Positions 2,106 to 13,688 of a stretch of DNA of 32,000 nt are shown here, in pieces. Source of the stretch: Candidatus Hermodarchaeota archaeon (GTDB lineage Archaea > Asgardarchaeota > Heimdallarchaeia > Hodarchaeales > Hodarchaeaceae); assembly GCA_048886185.1 (NCBI GenBank), contig JBHLKY010000010.1:48526-80525 (forward strand), in the 5' to 3' direction. Position 1 is the stretch's first letter, and the number at the start of each line of letters is the position of its first letter. The translations under genes were made by a program, and so were the position numbers. The notes under the pieces were generated by a model. The model saw only the letters and a list, made by a program, of their open reading frames with translations, was not told the DNA's origin and ran no database searches.

Positions 2106-3093
2106 TAGGCCAACTCCTTTATTAGAAATTAAGAACTTAACGGTTGACTATCCAACCACTGAAGGAAATATACGAGCAGTTGATAATGTTTCTCTTAATC
2201 TCTATAGTGGAGAGGTTTTAGGACTTGTTGGCGAATCAGGTTGTGGAAAAAGTACTCTTGGATTTTCATTACTACGCTTATTAAGAGGGGGAGTTGTACG
2301 AAGTGGAAATATATTTTTTGAGGGTACAGATCTCTTATCGCTTTCTAAGTCAAAAATTCGGAAACTGCGAGGCTCTGATATTTCCATGGTATTTCAAGCA
2401 TCTCAAAACGCTCTAAATCCTCTTCAAAAAATTTCTAAACACTTCATTGATACATTAAAAGTTCATAATCTTTGGAATCCTGAGAAATGGGAAGATGTTA
2501 AGAACTTACTTCAACGTTTGGAAATTCCAGAATCACGTCTTGACGATTATGCGTTTCAATTTTCTGGTGGAATGCAGCAGCGTATTGTTATCGCTCTAAC
2601 ACTTATTTTAAACCCTAAATTAATAATTGCTGATGAACCAACAACAGCACTTGATGTTTTAGTTCAAGCACGGTTATTACAACTTCTTAAGGATATAATA
2701 AAGGAGTTTAAATTAACTGTTATCTATATTACTCACAATTTAGGAGTTGTTGCTGAAATCACTCAACGAGTTGCAATCATGTATGCTGGACAGATTCTTG
2801 AGGTGGGGGATACATTCACAATTTTTGAGGATGCTGCCCATCCTTATACACAAGCATTAATCTCAGCTATTCCGAACGTTAAAGATGAGGAAAAAAGAAA
2901 GATGAGTTTTATCCCAGGTCATCCTCCTGATTTAAGAAATCCTACTATAGGATGTTGTTTTGCTGATCGTTGCTCCTTTGCAATTGGGATATGTAAAACT
3001 ACCCTTCCCCACCCTCTCTCTCTCTCCTCAAAAAATGGCCACATGGTTAAATGTCTAATGTACGATGATAATTTTAGTTCAAAGTTTAAATGA
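2062..3093 (+). CDS. dppD: Dipeptide/oligopeptide ABC transporter ATPase (DppD/OppD family), operon 1
   Basis: Walker A GESGCGKST, signature FSGGMQQR, Walker B IIADEPTTALD, H-loop ITHN, C-terminal four-Cys oligo-HPY domain. ATG 2062 lies 7 nt after AGGTGAT and overlaps the dppC 3' end. Confidence 0.93.
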   Translation: MTNSIPLLNKKEFNNRPTPLLEIKNLTVDYPTTEGNIRAVDNVSLNLYSGEVLGLVGESGCGKSTLGFSLLRLLRGGVVRSGNIFFEGTDLLSLSKSKIRKLRGSDISMVFQASQNALNPLQKISKHFIDTLKVHNLWNPEKWEDVKNLLQRLEIPESRLDDYAFQFSGGMQQRIVIALTLILNPKLIIADEPTTALDVLVQARLLQLLKDIIKEFKLTVIYITHNLGVVAEITQRVAIMYAGQILEVGDTFTIFEDAAHPYTQALISAIPNVKDEEKRKMSFIPGHPPDLRNPTIGCCFADRCSFAIGICKTTLPHPLSLSSKNGHMVKCLMYDDNFSSKFK

Positions 3094-3100
3094 ATCTGGG

Positions 3101-4321
3101 ATGAAATTGACTCAAAATACAGATCTTAGTAAAGATCCCCCTTTACTTACAGTTAAAAACTTAAAGAAATACTTTCCTATTGAAGGTGGATTCTTTCAAC
3201 GCCTTTTCTCTAAAGAACAAGAATATGTGCATGCTGTGGATGATATCACTTTTTCAATAAATAGGGGTGAGATCTTTTGTCTTGTTGGTGAAAGTGGTTG
3301 TGGCAAAACAACAGCTGCAAATGTCATAATTGGGCTAGAAAACCCCACAGCTGGAGAATTTGAATGGAAAGGGTCTAACATAACTCATGATGAATTGAAG
3401 CCCAAAAAAGGGAACATAAAATCCCAAGTTGTTTTTCAGAATCCATTTTCTTCGCTGAGTCCACGAATGAGATTAGGGGACGCTGTTCTTCATTCATTGG
3501 TGATTCATGATAGAGTAGATGATCAAGATACTAAGAAAAAGAATAGAAACTCGATCTATTCAGAAATATTATTTGTATTAAGCAGTTTATTAGCCATGGT
3601 TCTACTTATTCTTGCTTTTGTTCTTGAAGAGATGGCAGCTGGGATAAGTGCGTTGTTAGGAGTTTTTATATTTGCAATTGCTTTATTTTCTTATTTTTAT
3701 TTCGCGGTGTATCAAAAAAACAAAATTGCAGATAGGACTGTATTGGGATTTTTTAATGAAATAGGTTTAACACCACCGAATCAATATTATTCTAAGTATC
3801 CTAACGCTGTTAGTGGGGGAGAAAGGCAGCGTGTTTCAATTGCACGAGCGATTGTACTTAATCCCGAGTTACTTGTGGCTGATGAACCCACAAGTATGTT
3901 AGATGTAAGTTTAAGGGCTGGGATTTTAGATCAATTAAAAGAAATACAATTAACTCACAATATTTCCATCCTTTTCATTACGCACGATCTAGCAACAGCA
4001 AGACATTTTGGGGATCGAGTGGCGGTAATGTATGTTGGAAAGATAGTGGAAATAGGGGACGTTGAGCAAATGTTCAAAAATCCTTTTCACCCGTACACAA
4101 ATGCTTTAATAGATGCAATTCCTACTCCTATACCTGGAGAAAAGAAAATCAACCTTCCGAAAGGTGAAGTACCTGATTCAATCACCCCACCATCAGGTTG
4201 TCGATTTCATCCCCGCTGTTCTATTGCTGATCTATCTATTTGCAGTACAGAAGAGCCAAAATTAGTGGAAAAATATCCAAATCATTTTGTAGCCTGTCAT
4301 TTTCCATTAGTCAAAAAATAA
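3101..4321 (+). CDS. dppF: Dipeptide/oligopeptide ABC transporter ATPase (DppF/OppF family) with an inserted two-helix hydrophobic segment
   Basis: GESGCGKTT, Q-loop VFQNP, VSGGERQR, VADEPTSMLD, ITHD, GCRFHPRC...C...VACH. About 60-65 extra residues, mostly hydrophobic, sit between the Q-loop and the signature. The start is uncertain (3065, 3101 or 3107). Confidence 0.9.
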   Translation: MKLTQNTDLSKDPPLLTVKNLKKYFPIEGGFFQRLFSKEQEYVHAVDDITFSINRGEIFCLVGESGCGKTTAANVIIGLENPTAGEFEWKGSNITHDELKPKKGNIKSQVVFQNPFSSLSPRMRLGDAVLHSLVIHDRVDDQDTKKKNRNSIYSEILFVLSSLLAMVLLILAFVLEEMAAGISALLGVFIFAIALFSYFYFAVYQKNKIADRTVLGFFNEIGLTPPNQYYSKYPNAVSGGERQRVSIARAIVLNPELLVADEPTSMLDVSLRAGILDQLKEIQLTHNISILFITHDLATARHFGDRVAVMYVGKIVEIGDVEQMFKNPFHPYTNALIDAIPTPIPGEKKINLPKGEVPDSITPPSGCRFHPRCSIADLSICSTEEPKLVEKYPNHFVACHFPLVKK

Positions 4322-4684: not shown

Positions 4685-5434
4685 ATGGTGAAAATATTAA
4701 TGGAATTTGTTGGATACTCAGACTCCTACGTTCGTGATTTAGTTAGAAATCGAAATAAATTTCCAGATAAGGAAAAACAGCATGAAACTATTAATGAAAC
4801 TAATATAAAACGTACATTAACAGCATTATCAAAAGTAGAAAGGCCTGAATCACAAATTAAGGATATGATCACTTGGTTGGAGAAGATATCGCGATATATT
4901 CCAATACCAAGTGAAAAAGAATTAGAAGAAATAATCCAGCTTATGATATTGTTAGGTAAAGTAAGATCTCAATTCAATTTTCTATATGACAAGCCTGGTC
5001 TAGATTTAATGAAGCGTGTCAGAGAATGCATGATTAGATACTTAGTTGTTTTATCTGAAATTCGAGTAAGCAGAAAGGAATACTTAGCTCATTGGTTCAC
5101 TGAGGAATCTTGGATATTCGATTGGAGTCGTACTTTCCTTGATCTTATGCCATCAGATAATATGGAAATGTTCTCTTTTCCAGATATAACTGCCCACGAT
5201 TTCCTCCATCTATTAACACTAGAATTAGCGTGTGCTGACTCTACTTCGAAGCTAGAAAAACCAATGTTGAAAATGCAAACATTAGAGGATAAGCATAACG
5301 AGTTCATTATCATTCCTACTGAAGCAGCGGCACAAGAATATAAGATTCAAGTAACAAGAATATTAAATAATGAATTGACCTTTACTGACTGGGTTAATGA
5401 AATATTAAAGGCCTATGAGTTACCAAAACCTTGA
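4685..5434 (+). CDS. Hypothetical soluble protein, probably alpha-helical
   Basis: 249-codon ATG ORF in AT-rich DNA with natural, charged composition; no family recognised. Confidence 0.75.
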   Translation: MVKILMEFVGYSDSYVRDLVRNRNKFPDKEKQHETINETNIKRTLTALSKVERPESQIKDMITWLEKISRYIPIPSEKELEEIIQLMILLGKVRSQFNFLYDKPGLDLMKRVRECMIRYLVVLSEIRVSRKEYLAHWFTEESWIFDWSRTFLDLMPSDNMEMFSFPDITAHDFLHLLTLELACADSTSKLEKPMLKMQTLEDKHNEFIIIPTEAAAQEYKIQVTRILNNELTFTDWVNEILKAYELPKP

Positions 5435-5506: not shown

Positions 5507-6232
5507 ATGAAAATGCTATCTTTAAAAGAAAAATATTATAAAAAATTGGTAATAAAACTCTCATTGATACTTATCATAGGATTTCTATTTATATCACACA
5601 TTATTACCTCTCCGTCCAAAGCTGATTATGTTGTGATAGATTGGGGGGATCTTGTGAAAATGAAGGTTAAAATAACATACAGAAGGCCTGGAGGAACTGA
5701 TCAGTTTTTTTCCGATGGTTTTGTAGAACTCTATCTTGGAGATACTGTGCCTCCAGAAGTAAATGAAACATCAAATAGAATAAAAACAATGTCTGCGGTA
5801 TTTAGAGAACATGTAATAGGTATGAGGGTGGGAGAGGAGCGAACTTTCAAAGTAAATTATAAAGAACTCAATATTACTCGTCCAGATAATACTCTATATG
5901 GAGCTGATATTACTTATACTGTTAAATTTCTAGAAATGCTTCTAGATGCACACTATGACCCAATCTTCGAATTAACACCTACTCATCCAGTCTTTTTATT
6001 TTCAATGGCTGCTCTCGGAATCATCTTATTTCTCATTTATTATACTGATTTACATCATATTGTGTATCAAAAGGTTCAAAGAGTCCGTGTCCCCCATTGT
6101 GTGATATGCGGAACTCGTACAAGTTTACACTGTGGTTTTGCGGGCTGTAAAAAATCAATTTGTCGTTCGTGTTTTACTAAAGAAGGACGATGTCCTTTCT
6201 GTAATAGTAATAAGCTTGTAGGTCAAAAATAG
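5507..6232 (+). CDS. Membrane protein: signal peptide, FKBP-type PPIase-like domain, TM helix and C-terminal 8-Cys (RING-like) zinc finger
   Basis: Signal-like N-terminus ending SPSKA. FKBP-like motifs GDLVKMKVKITY, LYLG, VIGMRVGEERTFKV, LYGADITYTVKFLE. TM at about aa 162-180. Cys at aa 198, 201, 209, 214, 219, 222, 229 and 232. Confidence 0.8.
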   Translation: MKMLSLKEKYYKKLVIKLSLILIIGFLFISHIITSPSKADYVVIDWGDLVKMKVKITYRRPGGTDQFFSDGFVELYLGDTVPPEVNETSNRIKTMSAVFREHVIGMRVGEERTFKVNYKELNITRPDNTLYGADITYTVKFLEMLLDAHYDPIFELTPTHPVFLFSMAALGIILFLIYYTDLHHIVYQKVQRVRVPHCVICGTRTSLHCGFAGCKKSICRSCFTKEGRCPFCNSNKLVGQK

Positions 6233-6241
6233 CAATATCTA

Positions 6242-6943
6242 TTAAGAGCTTTGTATTTTATTGATTACTGATAATTTACCATTTTGAAGCAAAAAAATTT
6301 TATCAGCGTTTTTAGCCGCTTCAGGATCATGTGTGGTCATGATAATTGCATGATTTCCTCTTTGATCAACAATATGTCTAAAAAGGGAAATAATTTCTTT
6401 TCCAGTTTGTGAATCTAAATTCCCAGTTGGTTCATCGACCAACAGGATTAAAGGATTGTTTACAATAGCTCGTGATATAGCAATACGTTGTTTCTCCCCT
6501 CCTGATAGCTGATTTGGATAATGGTTTGCTTTTTCAGTCATGTCAGTTTGTTGGAGGGCTTTGAGTGCAAGTAACTTTCGTTCACTTTCAGGAACCTCAG
6601 CAAATATTAAGGGGATTTCAACGTTTTCTTCTGCTGTGAGATGAGGAAGTAAGTTAAAATCTTGAAAAACCATGCCTAGTTTGTTTCGTCGTAATTCAGA
6701 AGCAATATCATCCGATATCTTACCAATATTATAATTCTCTACGAAGACATCACCTTCAGTTGCTTGTTCCAATCCAGTGATTATATTTAATAGAGTAGTT
6801 TTACCTGATCCAGAAGCTCCCATAATAGCAACAAATTCATTAGGAAATAGCTTGAGATTTACATTATCAAAAACTTTTAAGGTAATTGAATCCTCATCAA
6901 ACTCTTTTTTTAACCCTTTAACGACCAAGATAGGCTCTATCAA
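6242..6943 (-). CDS. ABC transporter ATPase, LolD/MacB/FtsE family
   Basis: GASGSGKTT, GMVFQDFNLLPHLTAEENV, LSGGEKQRIAISRA, VDEPTGNLD, TTHD. TTG start; an in-frame stop lies 7 codons upstream with no ATG between. Confidence 0.92.
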   Translation of the reverse strand: MIEPILVVKGLKKEFDEDSITLKVFDNVNLKLFPNEFVAIMGASGSGKTTLLNIITGLEQATEGDVFVENYNIGKISDDIASELRRNKLGMVFQDFNLLPHLTAEENVEIPLIFAEVPESERKLLALKALQQTDMTEKANHYPNQLSGGEKQRIAISRAIVNNPLILLVDEPTGNLDSQTGKEIISLFRHIVDQRGNHAIIMTTHDPEAAKNADKIFLLQNGKLSVINKIQSS

Positions 6944-7101
6944 GCTAATTTCCCTGGTGGATCATTTATTCAATGGTATTATGATATTTATGGTTTATGT
7001 AAGAATCAATTTACTTTTAATCTTAGAGTTCTTATATATCATAGCAATAAATGAAAAGATAAAGAAAATTTAATTTATAAATCAAGATTTTTTTATCTTC
7101 A

Positions 7102-8166
7102 ATGAGATGTTCTAACGTGACCAAAAACCATACTAAAGACAATTATGATAATTCTGACCTTCCAGAAGATTTACTTATCGGAATAGCGAATGTATACAAG
7201 ATTTATCGAAGTGCAGAAATTGAAACAGTTGCGCTGCGAGGAGTAAGTTTATCATTATTTGAAGGAGAAATTATGGGTGTTATTGGTCCATCAGGAAGCG
7301 GTAAAAGTACCTTGGTTAACATAATGGCTGGATTGATAAAACCAACCGCAGGAATTGTATATTGGTCATCTGTTAGGGCTGACATTGCACGGATGCCCGA
7401 TAATTTTATAACTCAAATAAGAAATCAATTCATTGGGATTATTTGCCAGATATCGGAGTCTAATTTATTACCACACTTATCTGTTATCGAAAATGTTTTG
7501 TTACAAGGTCAAATTGGTAATTTAAATCGAACCGAGTTGAAAAAACATGCTTTGGAACTCTTGGATCGTGTTGGCCTCAGATCTCGTCAAAATAGTAAAC
7601 CAATGGTATTATCAATGGGCGAAAGACAGCGAATAGCTTTAGCTGCAGCATTAATTAATAAGCCGAAGATAATTCTAGCTGATGAGCCAACTGGTTCTCT
7701 TGATTATAAGAATGGAGAAGAATTCTTAGAATTAATACATGAAATAAATGAGAATTTAGGAACAGCATTTCTAATCGTGACTCACTCTCAGCAAGTTGTT
7801 CCTCATACTCATCGTATCATAGAACTTCGTGATGGAATCAAAGCAGGACAGCATGAAGAGATTGAATTAGACAATCTTGATTATAGTCGCATTATTATTC
7901 CTGATGACCAGGGACGAATACTACTTCCCCAAGAGTTGATAACACGATTTGATACAGACACAAGTCACTTTAAAGCTGTTCTTAAAGATGGTAAGATAGT
8001 ACTTGAGCCAATAGTAACTTCTCTTTCGAGGAAAAGTATTATCTTTCAACGGCGTTCGCATAAGGAAATAGCTTGTCCTGTTTGTAAAACTGTTAACATT
8101 GGTAAAAGCATTCTATGCTCTAATTGTGGAAGCTTATTACGAAAAGCTGGTCGTTGGTCAACATAA
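7102..8166 (+). CDS. ABC transporter ATPase (LolD/MacB family) fused to an AbrB-like domain and a zinc ribbon
   Basis: GPSGSGKST, NLLPHLSVIENV, LSMGERQR, ADEPTGSLD, VTHS. These are followed by DDQGRILLPQELI...DGKIVLEP (AbrB/SpoVT-like) and CPVC-x10-CSNC. Confidence 0.88.
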   Translation: MRCSNVTKNHTKDNYDNSDLPEDLLIGIANVYKIYRSAEIETVALRGVSLSLFEGEIMGVIGPSGSGKSTLVNIMAGLIKPTAGIVYWSSVRADIARMPDNFITQIRNQFIGIICQISESNLLPHLSVIENVLLQGQIGNLNRTELKKHALELLDRVGLRSRQNSKPMVLSMGERQRIALAAALINKPKIILADEPTGSLDYKNGEEFLELIHEINENLGTAFLIVTHSQQVVPHTHRIIELRDGIKAGQHEEIELDNLDYSRIIIPDDQGRILLPQELITRFDTDTSHFKAVLKDGKIVLEPIVTSLSRKSIIFQRRSHKEIACPVCKTVNIGKSILCSNCGSLLRKAGRWST

Positions 8167-8179
8167 GAAGAACCTCTTG

Positions 8180-11101
8180 TCATAAATTACGAAGGAGGTT
8201 TGAGACGTTTACATTTCGAGCATTTTTAGCAGCCATTCCTGAAGCTAATACTAGGATGCAAAATTCAAGAATTAGGATCACTCCGACTAAAAAAGGGGAA
8301 GCAAAAAACTCAAGTCTGAAGACATTTTCAGTTGAAAGAATAAAACTCCTTGAAGCAAGCATAAAACCAATTGTAAAACCTGAACCAATAATGAACCCGA
8401 GTGAAATCCCCAAAAAAATGATTATTAGCGCTTCTGCGAATGAAATCCAGAGTATTTGTCTTTTAGTCCCCCCACAAGCTCTTAAAATCGCGTATTCTTT
8501 CAGTCTCTTAGTGATGATATAATTATAGAATAAACTAATCCCAATAACAGCGATAAATAGAGACATCAAAAAGTTAACTGAGAGAATACCAGCAACACCT
8601 GTGATTTTCATAAAATTAAAGAACAATTCGTTACTTTGTTGTTGATCTATTACTTGTATTACTTGTGGTTGTGCTTTTAAACTGTCTGTAACGGAATTAA
8701 GTGTCTTAAGACTACGATTGTCAACTTTAATTAAAAAAATCCTAGTAGTGGTTATCCTAAAAATCTTCATAAGGTCTTGATTGATTAAAACTATTCCCCC
8801 AAACTTGGAAAAGCCACGAATTGTATATGCTTCAGAATGTAATTTCCCTATACCTGGAGCTGAATTCATAATTCCTACAACAGTAAAGTTCCAAACTGTG
8901 CTAATAGATCCAAAAAGGCCACTTACATTCAGTGAGTCGCCAATTTTTAACTTCAATCTTGAAGCTATAAAATCATTGATAATCATTCCACTAGTATTGT
9001 CTGTTTCTAACTTGTTTAACATGTCTTTCACTGTACCGCCAGCAACAGTTGATTCTTTAGAGAACTGACAAGCTGATAGGTAATTACTAGGACTAACTGC
9101 TGCAAGAGTAACTGAATAACTGCCGACACTGACTTGAGGGTTTGATGTCTGACTTATTGCGGATACTGCTAGTACACTTTCGATTTTTTCAAGTTCGAGA
9201 GAATAATCTAACGAAGTTTCTTCTGTAAAAACCTTAAAATCTGACCCAACTAGATATTTTAGATTTTTTTGGGTATTATAATCGATTGTTTGAGCGTAAT
9301 AAGTTGAGAATATCCCCAATGAGACGGTTAAAATCACTAATGTAATGATATTTAATACATGAGGTCTTTTTCTCACAAGATTCATTGTAATAACTTTACT
9401 TTTTGATTTAAATAAAAGACTAGTAATTTTTGATATTCGGGGAAGAATTTCCCCACTGAGAATCGTAAGACGTTTACATAATAAAAACCAGAGAATAGTG
9501 GCACCAGCTAAGTAAAATCCCATTAATTGAGGATCAAGAGTAAGTCGATTAATAATATCTGACTGTAATATAAGCAAAAAAATGAAAACAATGAGTACAA
9601 GAATAATTATATCAAAATTTCTTCTGGAGAACTGTTTTGTTAATCCAGAATTCTCTTTTTTGGGTTCTTGTTCTTGAAGCTCTTGTATAGCTCTTCTTGT
9701 TTTTTGAACAGCAATAAGAATGTAAATGAATCCAATAAACATTGCACTGAAAACCCATGTGGGCCATGATACCAACGAAGTGTTTACAAATTCTATTGGG
9801 AAATTCTGAGGATTAATGACAAGAAAATTCTCTGTTGACGAAATAACCAGTGTAATGATAAGTCCCAATCCAATACCAATTGAAACTCCAATAATCGAAA
9901 GAATAACGAATTCTACAATGAACAAAGTCATGATGATTCTAAAAGGAGCGCCTTTTAACCTCAATAATTCAATCTCGTTTTTTCTTTTTTCTAAAAAGTG
10001 AGAAGCTGTTGTCGCAAAGAAAATAGAGGCTACAATTATTAATGGTACAAAGATAAAGAAAACCAACACCTGAGAATCCTCATAATTTGTTAAAATTTGA
10101 TCTATTTCATCAAGATAAACTTCAGCAACAATTATCGTATTAGTAGTAGAGATACGGAATGCTAATGCTTCAATCTCTTGTGTTACTGAAAAAATAGACA
10201 TACTAGCAATTGCTTCACGCTTAATCTGAACATAAAGGCTTGGGCTTATGACTTGGACTTCCATAGCCTTTATAGAGCTCCTATTGAAAAGATCACGAGC
10301 AATGAATATTCCATCACCAAGGCTTTCGGGGAAAAAATATGGATATAAAAGATTTTTTTGGACTTTGCGGTCAAAAATGGCATTAATTGTAAAATTATAG
10401 AATTTAATTGGGTTAAAATACTCTAATGAAAATTCCCCACTTTCAGGATCCATTATTCTAGTGGCTATTGCGAAATCGATCTGATCACCTGTTGTAAAAG
10501 TCTGATTTGTTGCAAGTTCGATCTGATGCAGCATCCTTTTTGAAATAACAACCCCATTATTGGCTAGAGTAAGATTATCTTTCGTAGATGAAAGGATCAA
10601 TTGTTGTGATAGATGAAAAAGGTATTCTTCTTCAACTAGGTATGCTGATTGCCCAAGAATTTCAGAGACATAAAAATCGGATTGATTTTCAGGAGCTTCA
10701 TACACAGTAAAATTATCATCCCGATCGTTCAAGTTGAACAACATCAAAGTCGGTTGTACAAGAAAGGAGACCCCAACAAGAGGTTCCGATTCCTCTAAAT
10801 ATACCTGAACATCTTCAAGTCTATCATTAGGATAAAGTCCATAAACAAGATTATGAACCCTGATTTCAAAAGATCGCTCCTTCATTGCCGAATTAATAGC
10901 TAATCTTGGATATGTCTCAATCCACATGATTAAAGCTGTCGTTAAAGAAACACAGATAATAATTGCAATGATGATTGTTGAAGATCTTTTTAGATTGTGT
11001 AAAATGGTTTTGAATACATATCTAGGAATGAATCCATTGAAAAATTGTGTTTGAGGGTTTAATTTCTTTTGTTTCTGCTTCTTACTGCTGAAGTGGTTCA
11101 T
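8180..11101 (-). CDS. FtsX/MacB-family ABC permease with two tandem halves
   Basis: Two FtsX-like modules (RKNEIELLRLKGAP and RLKEYAILRACGGT), each preceded by a large extracytoplasmic domain with many N-x-S/T sequons. ATG 11101 is preferred over GTG 11122. Confidence 0.9.
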   Translation of the reverse strand: MNHFSSKKQKQKKLNPQTQFFNGFIPRYVFKTILHNLKRSSTIIIAIIICVSLTTALIMWIETYPRLAINSAMKERSFEIRVHNLVYGLYPNDRLEDVQVYLEESEPLVGVSFLVQPTLMLFNLNDRDDNFTVYEAPENQSDFYVSEILGQSAYLVEEEYLFHLSQQLILSSTKDNLTLANNGVVISKRMLHQIELATNQTFTTGDQIDFAIATRIMDPESGEFSLEYFNPIKFYNFTINAIFDRKVQKNLLYPYFFPESLGDGIFIARDLFNRSSIKAMEVQVISPSLYVQIKREAIASMSIFSVTQEIEALAFRISTTNTIIVAEVYLDEIDQILTNYEDSQVLVFFIFVPLIIVASIFFATTASHFLEKRKNEIELLRLKGAPFRIIMTLFIVEFVILSIIGVSIGIGLGLIITLVISSTENFLVINPQNFPIEFVNTSLVSWPTWVFSAMFIGFIYILIAVQKTRRAIQELQEQEPKKENSGLTKQFSRRNFDIIILVLIVFIFLLILQSDIINRLTLDPQLMGFYLAGATILWFLLCKRLTILSGEILPRISKITSLLFKSKSKVITMNLVRKRPHVLNIITLVILTVSLGIFSTYYAQTIDYNTQKNLKYLVGSDFKVFTEETSLDYSLELEKIESVLAVSAISQTSNPQVSVGSYSVTLAAVSPSNYLSACQFSKESTVAGGTVKDMLNKLETDNTSGMIINDFIASRLKLKIGDSLNVSGLFGSISTVWNFTVVGIMNSAPGIGKLHSEAYTIRGFSKFGGIVLINQDLMKIFRITTTRIFLIKVDNRSLKTLNSVTDSLKAQPQVIQVIDQQQSNELFFNFMKITGVAGILSVNFLMSLFIAVIGISLFYNYIITKRLKEYAILRACGGTKRQILWISFAEALIIIFLGISLGFIIGSGFTIGFMLASRSFILSTENVFRLEFFASPFLVGVILILEFCILVLASGMAAKNARNVNVSNLLRNL

Positions 11102-11546
11102 TTTCTCTCGCTTGTTTTCCACAATGAGTTATCTGTAAAACAAAAGATGATAGTACGATATGTTAAAGTTTAATTCTTGATTCTTTAGGTTAATGCAAAA
11201 AATGATTTTAAAAGTAGACTAATAATCTCACAGGGGAGTAAGTAATCCTTACTAAAAGGGTATTATTCGATTGTAAATAAGTTAAGTGCTGAAATATCAG
11301 CTTAAAAAGGAAATGAGAACAAAAAACATTTTGAAAGGTGGTTAAATCCCGAGAAAAAGGTAATTGGTTTTTTTTATCATTTCTTCTTGTTATTAATAGT
11401 CACCAAACCAGAAATTGAAGGTGCATTCCTCAAAAGATTTATTAATTGAAAAATGAATTTTCTTGAACTTGTAAGATACTACACAACACCTCGGTTAAGA
11501 GGATGATGTATCTTATTACAATCAATTTCATTTTGAAGGAATCAAT

Positions 11547-13688
11547 ATGAAAGATAGAAAAACGCTTTTTAAGGTGATTACTCTTTTTTTGGCGCTTACG
11601 CTTTTGGGTAACATAGCCATGATGGTTACAGCTCAAGATGAGTTAGAACCTTTCTTCAGCTGTCACCTACTTGCTCCTACTAATAACCCAGTCAGGATGC
11701 AATACGCTCAATTACTTGAAACGGAATTCTCTAAAATTGGAGTAGATGTAGAGTTAGATCTTGTCGCTTGGTCCGCTATGGGGCCTCGATGCTATTATGA
11801 TGAGGCTGGAACCTATTTGGAAGGCGGATATGATATGGTTTGTATGGGTATGTCAATAGGCACACCTGCGAGTCATCCTGGGAATAGTATGCTCGGTATA
11901 TATCACAATGACGCAGTACCTCCATTTGGGTATAATGTAGCGATGTGGAGTAATCGCAGCACTGAGTATAACGACTATCGAGCCGGTGAAGCATCTGATT
12001 TGATTGATGCACTTAACCAAGAGTTGGATTTCGATGAAGCTAAAAAACAACTTATTGACTGGCAGAAAATCCATTATGATGCAATGCCTCAGACTTACGT
12101 CCTAGTTCAATCTGAAGTACATGCTGTTTCGACAGGCTTGTATGGATATGATCCTACTGGTTACCCAATCGCCTCTGCTGAAGATCAGTGGCTTACAGAC
12201 GATTATGTTGGTGCTGCTGGGAAAGTGGTTCTTGGAACCTCTGATTCTGGCACCAGATTCTACGATTTCCTCGGGAAGTCTGTTTACGATCAATATACCT
12301 CTGCCCCTGTTCAAGATGCTCTTGTAGGTAACACCCCATCAAGTGAAATGATCATTCCCACTGGTGTTGATCGTGAAACTTGGATGGACGAACATTACCA
12401 CAATCGTTATGCTACAACTGGATATCTTGAACGTTATCCCCGAGTAGCTGAAGCTATGGGTACCTACTCATCTGATGGGCTTAAATATACTATTTCCATC
12501 CGAGATGATGTCTATTGGCATGATGGTATACAAGTAGATGCCTGGGATGTTGCGTTCGGCTTCCAAGCAGAACTTCAACCAGATGCGGGATCATCAACGT
12601 ATTCTACTCTAAAAACGGAATTTGGTCTTGATGATAAAGAGAATAACCATGGAAATTACTCTTTCGTTGTGACAGACGACGATGACGATGGTTTCGATGA
12701 GACTATCGAATTTAATTTTGCAGCAATTTATGCTCCATTCGTCCTTGCGGATCTAGGATTATCAATTAAACCTGAACATATTTTAGGTGATCCAGATAAT
12801 CACGGATTCAATCCTACAACTGGTGATTTTGAGGTCAGTCGATGGCTGGTTCAACCAAGCAATTGGGTTACACACTCCATGAACACAGCAAATCCTGAAG
12901 ATACAGGTGGATACAAAGGGCCCATTGGCTGTGGATCAATGGTATTCTACAATCGTGATCCAACAAGTAAAGTGGTGACCCTCAAGAAGTTTGATGGGAT
13001 CAGATGGGACACAGCAACAAGTAAGTGGGTTGATGATCCAGACCTCCGCCATTATCTCGCTGAGGATGGTTTATTAGATGATATGCCTGACGAATACACC
13101 ATGGTTCAGGGTGATATGAACAGTATTGTAGCTGATGCTAAAGAAGGTGATGTAAACTTAATTGATCCACAATTCACTATGGCGCCCATCCTTACTGAGC
13201 TGCAGGAGCATGAAAAGATCACTGCCGTCCTTAGTACAGAATCTGGTTGGCAATGTCTTTATTTCAATCCAAAGTATGCTGATGCTGATGGCGTCCATCA
13301 CTTGAAGAACAAAGGAGTTCGTCACGGACTTTCTCACGCAATTCCACGTGAAGATATCGTTGAATACTTACTCGCTGGTCAAGGTGTACCTGGTTATACC
13401 GCTGTACCAATAACTAATTGGGGTGCAGCTCCACCAGCAGATTTCTTAGAATACAAGAAAACAATTAAGGCTACTGATGGAACAACACCTGAGGCTGATG
13501 AAACAACGCATTATGATTCGTATGATCTGGACTTGGCTTTAGATTGGTTCGAAACTGAGGGATATGAAGTACAACCCTTCCGAGACGCCCTTGCCGCAGA
13601 AGGAGGAGGAGCTCCAGGTTTTGGAATCATCGTTGGATTAATCGCTTGTGTCGGTGCAGCAGCCTATCTCCGTAAAAAGAACCGCTAA
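11547..13688 (+). CDS. Extracellular solute-binding protein, family 5 (DppA/OppA-like), circularly permuted, with PGF-CTERM anchor
   Basis: Signal peptide (..MMVTA|QD). Family-5 motifs DGLKYTISIRDDVYWHDG..VDAWDV, GPIGCG and VRHGLSHAIPREDIV. C-terminal APGFG, hydrophobic helix and RKKNR. Confidence 0.9.
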   Translation: MKDRKTLFKVITLFLALTLLGNIAMMVTAQDELEPFFSCHLLAPTNNPVRMQYAQLLETEFSKIGVDVELDLVAWSAMGPRCYYDEAGTYLEGGYDMVCMGMSIGTPASHPGNSMLGIYHNDAVPPFGYNVAMWSNRSTEYNDYRAGEASDLIDALNQELDFDEAKKQLIDWQKIHYDAMPQTYVLVQSEVHAVSTGLYGYDPTGYPIASAEDQWLTDDYVGAAGKVVLGTSDSGTRFYDFLGKSVYDQYTSAPVQDALVGNTPSSEMIIPTGVDRETWMDEHYHNRYATTGYLERYPRVAEAMGTYSSDGLKYTISIRDDVYWHDGIQVDAWDVAFGFQAELQPDAGSSTYSTLKTEFGLDDKENNHGNYSFVVTDDDDDGFDETIEFNFAAIYAPFVLADLGLSIKPEHILGDPDNHGFNPTTGDFEVSRWLVQPSNWVTHSMNTANPEDTGGYKGPIGCGSMVFYNRDPTSKVVTLKKFDGIRWDTATSKWVDDPDLRHYLAEDGLLDDMPDEYTMVQGDMNSIVADAKEGDVNLIDPQFTMAPILTELQEHEKITAVLSTESGWQCLYFNPKYADADGVHHLKNKGVRHGLSHAIPREDIVEYLLAGQGVPGYTAVPITNWGAAPPADFLEYKKTIKATDGTTPEADETTHYDSYDLDLALDWFETEGYEVQPFRDALAAEGGGAPGFGIIVGLIACVGAAAYLRKKNR

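Follow-up and report, generated by a model that had tools for sequence, protein, structure and literature searches.

A gene at positions 5507..6232 of the forward strand of the 32,000-nucleotide stretch analyzed here in full (the window; contig JBHLKY010000010.1 of a Candidatus Hermodarchaeota archaeon) encodes a 241-aa protein, P0001, in which an FKBP-type domain, a transmembrane (TM) helix and a small cysteine-rich finger follow one another. Confidently observed or predicted features make P0001 a membrane protein of bitopic type, composed of a signal peptide or anchor, an extracellular divergent FKBP, one TM segment and a cytoplasmic finger. This FKBP-TM-finger architecture is conserved across the class Heimdallarchaeia and is apparently undescribed. 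Regarding its role, P0001 may be a membrane-anchored extracytoplasmic foldase or chaperone whose B-box/RING-like finger serves for docking or assembly in the cytoplasm; this is the best supported of the readings considered, and we hold belief and doubt in it to be evenly balanced. The comparisons below used sets of 13 close and 26 representative homologues, and a main alignment of 28 full-length members.

Protein layout and membrane topology

The gene and the parts of its product are as follows.

5507..6232, + strand: gene of P0001, FKBP-TM-finger protein of 241 aa, with ATG start and stop codon included (open reading frame list and translation)
5507..5623, + strand: aa 1-39, basic N-terminus and hydrophobic helix, then SKA/DY as a possible signal-peptidase site (hydropathy; AlphaFold2 helix 3-33)
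5624..5956, + strand: aa 40-150, divergent FKBP-fold ectodomain (AlphaFold2 confidence, Foldseek, Pfam hits of homologues)
5762-5770 and 5870-5878, + strand: sequons at N86 and N122, inside the ectodomain (translation)
5978..6052, + strand: aa 158-182, single TM helix (Kyte-Doolittle 2.23 over 158-182; AlphaFold2 helix 161-179)
6053..6094, + strand: aa 183-196, basic juxtamembrane helix (K/R-rich; AlphaFold2 helix 182-194)
6095..6229, + strand: aa 197-241, eight-Cys binuclear finger (C198...C232) and conserved N-K-L tail (AlphaFold2, VIA, Foldseek)

In the translation, a Lys-rich N-terminus is followed by a hydrophobic stretch (aa 10-38) and by the SKA/DY sequence at 39/40, and the alignment indicates that the junction P-x-x-A-DYVVIDWGD is conserved among the homologues. 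From sequence, the first 39 residues may be removed as a signal peptide or may stay on the protein as an N-terminal anchor. The two sequons, N86-E-T and N122-I-T, are both retained in 10 of 11 close orthologues, and the ectodomain is probably N-glycosylated.

The TM helix has its hydrophobic core at aa 161-179 and is flanked by a net charge of -4 over the preceding 15 aa and of +3 over the following 15 aa, and the same negative-to-positive asymmetry is found around the TM segment of most of the 28 homologues. Under the positive-inside rule this asymmetry assigns the FKBP part to the exterior of the cell and the Cys-rich tail to its interior, a location that also suits zinc-thiolate chemistry. 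The tail is strongly basic (net +9 over the last 50 residues; family median +7) and its cysteines are arranged as C198-x2-C201-x7-C209-x4-C214-x4-C219-x2-C222-x6-C229-x2-C232, with the end CRSCF...GRCPFC read from the translation. An earlier description of the gene, made from the DNA letters (the original prediction), had listed the signal peptide, the TM segment, the basic stretch, the sequons and the eight-Cys spacing, all of which can be read from the 5507-6232 translation, the spacing exactly as given; its further proposal that the membrane separates the two domains fits the -4/+3 charges that flank the helix.

The FKBP ectodomain

The AlphaFold2 (AF2) model of P0001, built on the family alignment, has a mean predicted local distance difference test score (pLDDT) of 89.8, with values of 91-98 over aa 40-150. 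When the ectodomain of this model was compared with the PDB by Foldseek, the top 50 structures were FKBP13, FKBP2, SlyD, Mip, trigger factor and FKBP11, except for two, the HEN1 methyltransferase (3htx) and a PSI-NDH subunit (7f9o). These matches had template modelling scores (TM-scores), by target, of 0.57-0.70 and a probability of 1.00, and the best of them include FKBP13 of the endoplasmic reticulum (ER) and translocon-bound FKBP11 (9n9j). Alone, P0001 scores 12.7 bits with the Pfam FKBP_C model (PF00254; E 0.17), below the gathering threshold of 21.1, and the same model is matched by 8 of the 28 aligned family members, with a best E-value of 4.3e-14. The assignment is therefore secured transitively, through these homologues and the FKBP-type Foldseek matches, and the ectodomain is, as judged from sequence and predicted structure, a divergent FKBP, as the original prediction had it. 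By a rough alignment made by eye, we take the equivalent of FKBP12 W59 to be F99 of P0001, which is invariant, and that of FKBP12 F99 to be Y137, so that both positions are aromatic.

The closest parallel in layout for this half of the protein is provided by the ER proteins FKBP11 and FKBP13 (PDB 9n9j, 4nnr, 2pbc), whose FKBP fold likewise lies across the membrane from the cytoplasm, on a single-helix tether. Unlike P0001, they have no cytoplasmic zinc finger, and the identity is 12-18%; P0001, for its part, differs from them by an insert at 77-94 that bears a conserved sequon.

Fold and sequence affinities of the finger

An AF2 model of the tail alone reached a pLDDT of 90.4, with the finger residues at 90-97, and in the AF2 models the finger helix (220-226) begins at C219/C222, which is the signature of a treble clef. 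In a VIA structural search against representatives, almost all of the top 50 matches were cross-brace domains. The best was the Prp19 U-box (Z 4.5, root-mean-square deviation (rmsd) 1.8 Å over 44 residues), and the others comprised the ZZ domains of p62, CBP and CPEB1, many E2-bound RINGs, and the B-boxes of TRIM proteins and PML. Foldseek returned a list of the same composition, headed by the ZFYVE19 B-box (TM-score 0.60, E 0.23) and followed by the cIAP and IDOL RINGs, although with a domain of this small size no E-value was significant.

Further support for a cross-brace was provided by the pattern of ligand conservation. Six of the cysteines show no variation over the 28 full-length homologues, at least 90% of which also retain C201; F223, which is not a ligand, is nearly invariant as well. 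Three homologues have lost ligands, namely ligand 6 in P0025 and P0029 and ligands 2 and 6 in P0033, and ligands 3, 4, 7 and 8, which form the second zinc site (Zn2), never vary in the family alignment. In a cross-brace, ligands 1, 2, 5 and 6 bind one zinc and ligands 3, 4, 7 and 8 the other, so that 2 and 6 share a site. Since the losses are confined to these two ligands, which two sequential ribbons would not predict, they argue for a cross-brace. The finger of P0001 is predicted to adopt a cross-brace (treble-clef) fold of the RING/U-box/ZZ/B-box superfamily, with two zincs. The original proposal of a RING-like finger thus agrees with the fold predicted from AF2, VIA, Foldseek and the ligand losses, which is not that of sequential ribbons.

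The finger is 35 residues long in P0001 and 31-36 across the family, whose wider members have the spacing x2, x7-12, x2 or x4, x4, x2, x4-6. Apart from the ligands, conserved positions over the 28 sequences are G202, K216, R220, F223 and the N-K-L tail. The nearest solved sequences, as found by comparing a profile of the 28 tails with the PDB, are PML B-box1 (E 0.0067), the CPEB1 ZZ domain (0.047) and the ZFYVE19 B-box (0.065). Searches of Pfam and the PDB with the single P0001 sequence gave sub-threshold matches only. RING models of Pfam, whose cut-offs are 27-28, score 13-17 bits on P0001 and so do not surpass the ANCHR-like_BBOX model, which reaches 16.2 bits (cut-off 27). With the tail alone, the values were 17.0 bits for zf-RING_5 (cut-off 27.9), 15.2 for zf-C3HC4_3 (27) and 15.3 for Prok-RING_4 (27), at E 0.006-0.019. 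Any single RING model is matched by at most 3 of the 28 family members, at a best E-value of 0.007.

The RING consensus, C-x2-C-x(9-39)-C-x(1-3)-H-x(2-3)-C-x2-C-x(4-48)-C-x2-C, does not describe P0001, which has loops of x7, x4 and x4 and a Cys at ligand 4. In the wider family the first six ligands, C-x2-C-x(7-12)-C-x2-C-x4-C-x2-C, are spaced as in B-box1 (x2, x7-12, x2, x4, x2); in P0001 the loop from ligand 3 to ligand 4 is x4. The last pair of ligands of P0001 is a C-x2-C of the RING-like form C-P-x-C, where a B-box has H...H or His/Cys ligands, and the Pfam B-box models (PF00643 / PF22586) are not reached. The caution, attached to the original prediction, that the loops are non-canonical and that another two-zinc finger might be present was apt. 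A RING with only Cys ligands is known from CNOT4, with loops of x13, x1, x4, x2 and x11. It has the all-Cys ligands and the x4 loop in common with P0001 and differs in the other loops, and the matches listed for the finger, by sequence or by structure, include no CNOT4 chain, an absence compatible with a relationship.

Distribution of the family and modular use of the finger

Close homologues of P0001 (43-74% identity) were found only in metagenome-assembled genomes labelled Heimdallarchaeota, Hodarchaeales or Hodarchaeota, which agrees with the Asgard setting proposed earlier, and all are annotated as 'hypothetical protein'. The sequencing runs listed are DNA runs of sediment metagenomes, which may be the source, and include none of RNA. 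More distant members were added by an exhaustive representative search. In a whole-genome profile search, 65 of the 83 genomes from this class proved to encode the full architecture: 20/21 in family f1, 1/2 in f2, 1/1 in f3, 30/31 in f4 and 12/12 in f6, with no such gene in f5 (0/3) or f7 (0/12). Genomes of f4 often hold two or three tandem copies. When 300 further genomes of the phylum were searched, the matches listed outside the class covered the FKBP part only and lay mostly in frames of 884-1233 aa. A literature search, whose coverage did not extend to the survey of Burroughs et al. 2011, returned nothing specific on an Asgard B-box, an FKBP-TM-zinc finger or a TM-RING.

The genome of P0001 itself contains a second full copy of the gene (L015:910-1644). 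This paralogue adjoins a convergent gene (L015:1652-2326, - strand) for a CTP_transf_1-family membrane protein, which is dolichol/phytol-kinase-like; another such gene lies at L060:5233-5892, and the paralogue-type finger gene keeps this neighbour in two genomes. Two 54-aa matches that resembled stand-alone fingers, in genomes G049 and G052, were set aside as probable remnants of the paralogue locus, as the same CTP_transf_1 neighbour is present there.

A search of 40 genomes with a profile of the finger alone (E<=1e-4) recovered three kinds of protein: the FKBP-TM-finger proteins, proteins of ~270 aa in f4 with a thioredoxin-like (Trx) ectodomain, and one protein of ~575 aa. The last two kinds are located as follows.

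L057:591-1403 (genome G029) and L058:517-1461 (genome G024): Trx-TM-finger proteins of ~270-314 aa, family f4
L016:1390-3117 (= G000:C27, P0001's own genome), - strand: 575-aa N-terminally anchored protein with UFL1-like units and two fingers (profile searches)

In the Trx-TM-finger proteins a signal peptide is followed by a domain of thioredoxin-like type (WCPPC; AhpC-TSA/Redoxin, E 1e-18 to 1e-21), a TM segment and the same eight-Cys finger that P0001 has. As two unrelated ectodomains share it, the finger is common to two classes of extracytoplasmic folding catalysts. The 575-aa protein contains repeated winged-helix units that match the E3_UFM1_ligase model of UFL1 (PF09743) at E 1e-5, above the cut-off, and ends in two fingers related to that of P0001 (E 1.9e-4). 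Conversely, there are FKBP-TM relatives without a finger (the metagenomic P0023, P0027 and P0035, and G000:C6:70868-71353), which have a charged, probably coiled tail ending in an Arg/Lys run. Because these relatives carry other tails, the cytoplasmic module of the FKBP-TM scaffold is interchangeable.

Proposed role of P0001

If P0001 is a tethered foldase with a docking finger, its FKBP domain would act at the outer face of the membrane as a foldase or chaperone for exported proteins, in the manner of PrsA, PpiD and ER FKBP11/13. PrsA and PpiD are parvulin-type enzymes, so their likeness to P0001 is functional only. In the orthologue group of P0001, a likely client would be the large membrane-anchored peptide-binding protein whose gene travels with it (see Genomic neighbours). 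The finger would serve as a cytoplasmic docking or assembly module and not as an enzyme, and may position the foldase at, or gather it around, a cytoplasmic partner such as the translocon or ribosome or a chaperone or protease machinery, or may act through self-association. The occurrence of the same finger beneath a thioredoxin-like ectodomain suggests that it marks membrane-tethered extracytoplasmic folding catalysts.

The family fits a link that has been reported for B-boxes with the folding of proteins and membrane proteins. In the passages of PMC4506424 that cite Burroughs et al. 2011, prokaryotic B-boxes are tied to membrane-protein folding, stability and proteolysis, and in those of PMC5481349 fusions of B-box/AN1 domains to J-domains are noted in bacteria and archaea. 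As presented there, the prokaryotic B-box/RING-like treble clefs (Burroughs, Iyer and Aravind 2011) resemble P0001 in being small two-zinc cross-braces that occur in a context of folding or membrane proteins. These same passages make no mention of a fusion of an FKBP or thioredoxin ectodomain, across the membrane, to a B-box.

Several observations weigh against the tethered-foldase reading. No partner of the finger was identified. The Z values of its VIA matches (3-4.5) lie close together, and the fold cannot separate a B-box or ZZ domain from a true RING. P0001 and its four closest orthologues, compared by eye, keep Ile/Val two residues after the first ligand (C1+2) and the Pro of C-P-x-C, both of them characteristic of RINGs that bind ubiquitin-conjugating (E2) enzymes, and the C6-x6-C7 spacing of P0001 is that of IAP-type RINGs. 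On the side of the ectodomain, the positions that we take to correspond to Y26 and Y82 of the FKBP12 pocket, from the alignment by eye mentioned above, appear as V54 and I123 in P0001; Ile123 lies within the conserved N122-I-T sequon. Finally, the linkage to the peptide-binding protein is confined to the orthologue group of P0001 and does not extend to paralogues or distant members.

No known archaea are more closely related to the eukaryotes than the Heimdallarchaeia, and the family bears on the origin of the folding and quality-control apparatus of the eukaryotic secretory pathway. In this class, two kinds of extracytoplasmic folding catalyst, FKBP and thioredoxin-like oxidoreductase, appear to be tethered via a single type of RING/B-box-like finger. 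The family offers a small, expressible object for asking whether a cross-brace finger coupled events outside the cell to cytoplasmic machinery (ubiquitylation, chaperones, translocon) before eukaryotes arose. Should the finger be a docking module only, the connection already described for B-boxes of prokaryotes with the folding of membrane proteins would be extended to a new architecture and lineage. The interest rests mainly on the lineage and on the fact that the question of ubiquitin ligase (E3) activity can be tested on a domain of ~50 residues.

The ubiquitin system and the possibility of E3 activity

A doubtful alternative is that P0001 is a transmembrane RING-type E3, in which the FKBP or Trx-like ectodomain would engage misfolded exported or membrane proteins and the finger would recruit ubiquitin-charged E2 (E2~Ub) to mark their cytoplasmic parts. 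Such a protein would be the prokaryotic counterpart, by analogy, of PA-TM-RING ligases or of those of ER-associated degradation. The predicted cross-brace fold is in keeping with it, as are the many E2-bound RINGs (cIAP, IDOL, RNF4, BIRC7) among the top structural matches and the weak matches of the tail to zf-RING_5, zf-C3HC4_3 and Prok-RING_4 (E 0.006-0.019). I200 and P230 occupy the positions of E2-contact residues in IAP/Cbl-type RINGs, and the attachment of one finger to two different folding-related ectodomains fits the logic of quality control. A related finger (E 1.9e-4) moreover occurs twice in the protein with the UFL1-like winged helix (PF09743). The genome also encodes ubiquitin, the activating enzyme (E1) and four or five E2s, among them those at G000:C14:45202-45573, C1:295215-295682, C8:10436-10912 and C14:34641-34898; the original prediction had ascribed such components to Asgard archaea.

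On the contig of P0001 the closest E2-like gene is ~100 kb distant, and the surroundings of the ~25 finger-family loci examined contained no gene for ubiquitin, E1, E2 or JAB. Because E2 is present in 83/83 genomes of the class, including the 15 that lack the FKBP-TM-finger family, co-occurrence of the two is uninformative, and the absence of the family from those 15 genomes speaks against the E3 reading. Also against it, all RING models remain far under their gathering scores and three loops are off the RING consensus spacing. The residue at C1+2 is I/V in 6 of 11 orthologues, by eye, and Q/S/R in the others, that is, in about half; C6+4 is a conserved Glu, and no basic residue, which would be the 'linchpin', follows C8 in the orthologues, also by eye. 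Pro230 is conserved in the P0001 subfamily and not in the wider family.

The ubiquitin operons of the same genome contain RINGs of their own, which allows a direct comparison.

L035:9164-9502, + strand: RING of a ubiquitin operon, beside ubiquitin, E1 and E2 genes
L036:4060-4449, - strand: RING of a ubiquitin operon, beside ubiquitin, E1 and E2 genes

Their spacing is C-x2-C-x14-16-C-x2-C-x4-H-x2-[H/E]-x9-10-C-x2-C with a Trp in the helix, and the first of them, whose loops are x16 and x10, matches zf-RING_2 (E 3e-5). They share with P0001 the core C-x2-C-x4-[CH]-x2-[CH] and a final C-x-x-C, and differ from it by loops of 14-16 and 9-10 residues, His ligands, the helix Trp and the ubiquitin, E1 and E2 neighbours. 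Since an x4 also separates their ligands 4 and 5, this feature belongs to RINGs of these archaea in their own right and does not single out P0001. When the finger profile was aligned with both by hhalign, no relationship was found, only matches of 9-10 columns. A ubiquitin cascade with a small operon-encoded RING is said to have been described in Caldiarchaeum by Hennell James in 2017, a paper that PMC9192718 has in its reference list.

Two eukaryotic groups are comparable with P0001 in other respects. The C-terminal RINGs of the IAP/IDOL/MUL1 type (zf-C3HC4_3) also stand at the extreme C-terminus and have the same second half, C-x2-C-x6-C-P-x-C. They superpose on the finger with a TM-score of ~0.58 and an rmsd of 2.5 Å, and their Pfam model gives a weak match (E 0.019). 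P0001 departs from them in a first loop of 7 instead of 11 residues, in a ligand 4 that is Cys after x4 instead of His after x1, and in a score of 15 bits against the 27 required. The PA-TM-RING proteins (RNF13, GRAIL, RMR), which the original prediction had offered as a parallel, are like P0001 in combining an extracellular or luminal binding domain, one TM segment and a cytoplasmic cross-brace finger. The parallel stands for the layout and fails for the domain content, because P0001 has an FKBP and not a PA ectodomain, and a C4C4 finger of 35 aa without His ligands instead of a RING-H2 of ~45 aa; no sequence relationship was detected.

According to the models, then, the likeness of the finger to an E3 holds at the level of the fold only. 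The claim of an E3-like finger went further than the sub-threshold RING models, the B-box and ZZ nearest sequences, the lack of likeness to the ubiquitin-operon RINGs and the absence of ubiquitin genes nearby allow, and the step from a RING-like fold to a quality-control ligase is not supported by the same sequence and neighbourhood evidence. We consider it rather unlikely that the Heimdallarchaeia hold minimal transmembrane quality-control ubiquitin ligases, with FKBP and Trx-like sensors wired to a 35-residue E2-recruiting finger, as a forerunner of ER-associated degradation and of the PA-TM-RING proteins.

Genomic neighbours and remaining alternatives

The genes around that of P0001 in the window include the following.

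4685..5434, + strand: 249-aa soluble protein, upstream neighbour, 72 nt upstream of the P0001 gene on the same strand
6242-11122: ATP-binding cassette (ABC) block between the finger gene and the SBP_bac_5 gene, in the window and in near relatives, made up of a MacB-type ABC ATPase of 233 aa (-), an ABC ATPase of 354 aa (+) and an FtsX/MacB_PCD permease of 980 aa (-)
11547..13688, + strand: membrane-anchored SBP_bac_5 peptide-binding protein (Pfam SBP_bac_5, E 1.1e-36)

Orthologues of the SBP_bac_5 protein are encoded directly downstream of the finger gene at L025 (43% identity), L029 (45%) and L039 (phmmer 2e-215), the two genes being adjacent in four arrangements altogether, and the 6242-11122 block looks like an insertion into an older pair of finger and SBP genes. 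The 354-aa ATPase of this block has a C-terminal MraZ/AbrB-like segment and a zinc ribbon. The neighbourhoods of 20 paralogous or distant finger loci contained no ABC, Sec or ubiquitin genes. Conserved there are genes for an RNase E/G-like protein, DUF2797, a HIT protein, an aminotransferase and a Ras-like GTPase, in what looks like ordinary synteny between genomes that are related.

The gene of the 249-aa protein lies directly upstream of P0001 orthologues in unrelated flanks, at L024 (73% identity), L025 and L026 (53%) and L028 (52%), and genes of this family adjoin the finger gene in G000, G058 and G067. The protein is highly conserved, has no Pfam or PDB family match and no detectable DNA-binding domain, and its family has no model in the ESM Atlas. 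The prediction of a complex of the 249-aa protein with the P0001 tail (aa 178-241) and two Zn scored 0.00, which is evidence neither way.

This conserved order of 249-aa partner, finger gene and SBP gene in different flanks speaks for another explanation, according to which P0001 is a one-pass signal transducer: its FKBP would sense peptides or the liganded binding protein, and the finger, together with the 249-aa protein, would relay the signal to transcription or to a transporter in a ToxR-like or anti-sigma-like manner. The basic tail (+9 in P0001, median +7) agrees with this scheme, as do a metagenomic homologue of the partner (P0111) that is fused to an Arf/Ras-type small GTPase and the language-model features of a partner homologue, which weakly resemble those of integrase SAM-like DNA-binding domains (108 of 256 features shared; a lead only). 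We nevertheless judge the scheme improbable. The partner family is restricted to one genus (20/21 species), where it occurs in 1-4 copies per genome, most of them not beside the finger gene (further copies in the genome of P0001 lie at G000:C4:189454-190170 and G000:C22:35759-36469), whereas the finger family is class-wide without it; the partner lacks a detectable DNA-binding domain; and cross-brace fingers are usually protein-binding modules.

Least probable of the alternatives is that the finger is a passive anchor, a compact, positively charged folded plug that fixes the topology and blocks extraction of the foldase with no specific partner: its very small size (31-36 residues), its high basicity, the simple charged tails ending in poly-Arg of other FKBP-TM relatives and the degenerate first zinc site (Zn1) of three members are compatible with this, but the non-ligand positions G202, K216, R220, F223 and N-K-L are conserved over 28 sequences, and the reuse of the finger on an unrelated ectodomain and in a cytoplasmic multi-finger protein argues for a specific interaction surface.

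Elsewhere in the window, an OppF-type ATPase is encoded at 3065-4321 (+ strand). Its Pfam ABC_tran match spans residues 59-277 for a profile of 137 positions, and a hydrophobic insert of ~60 aa, with a weak match to DUF6142, occupies the centre of the ATPase domain.

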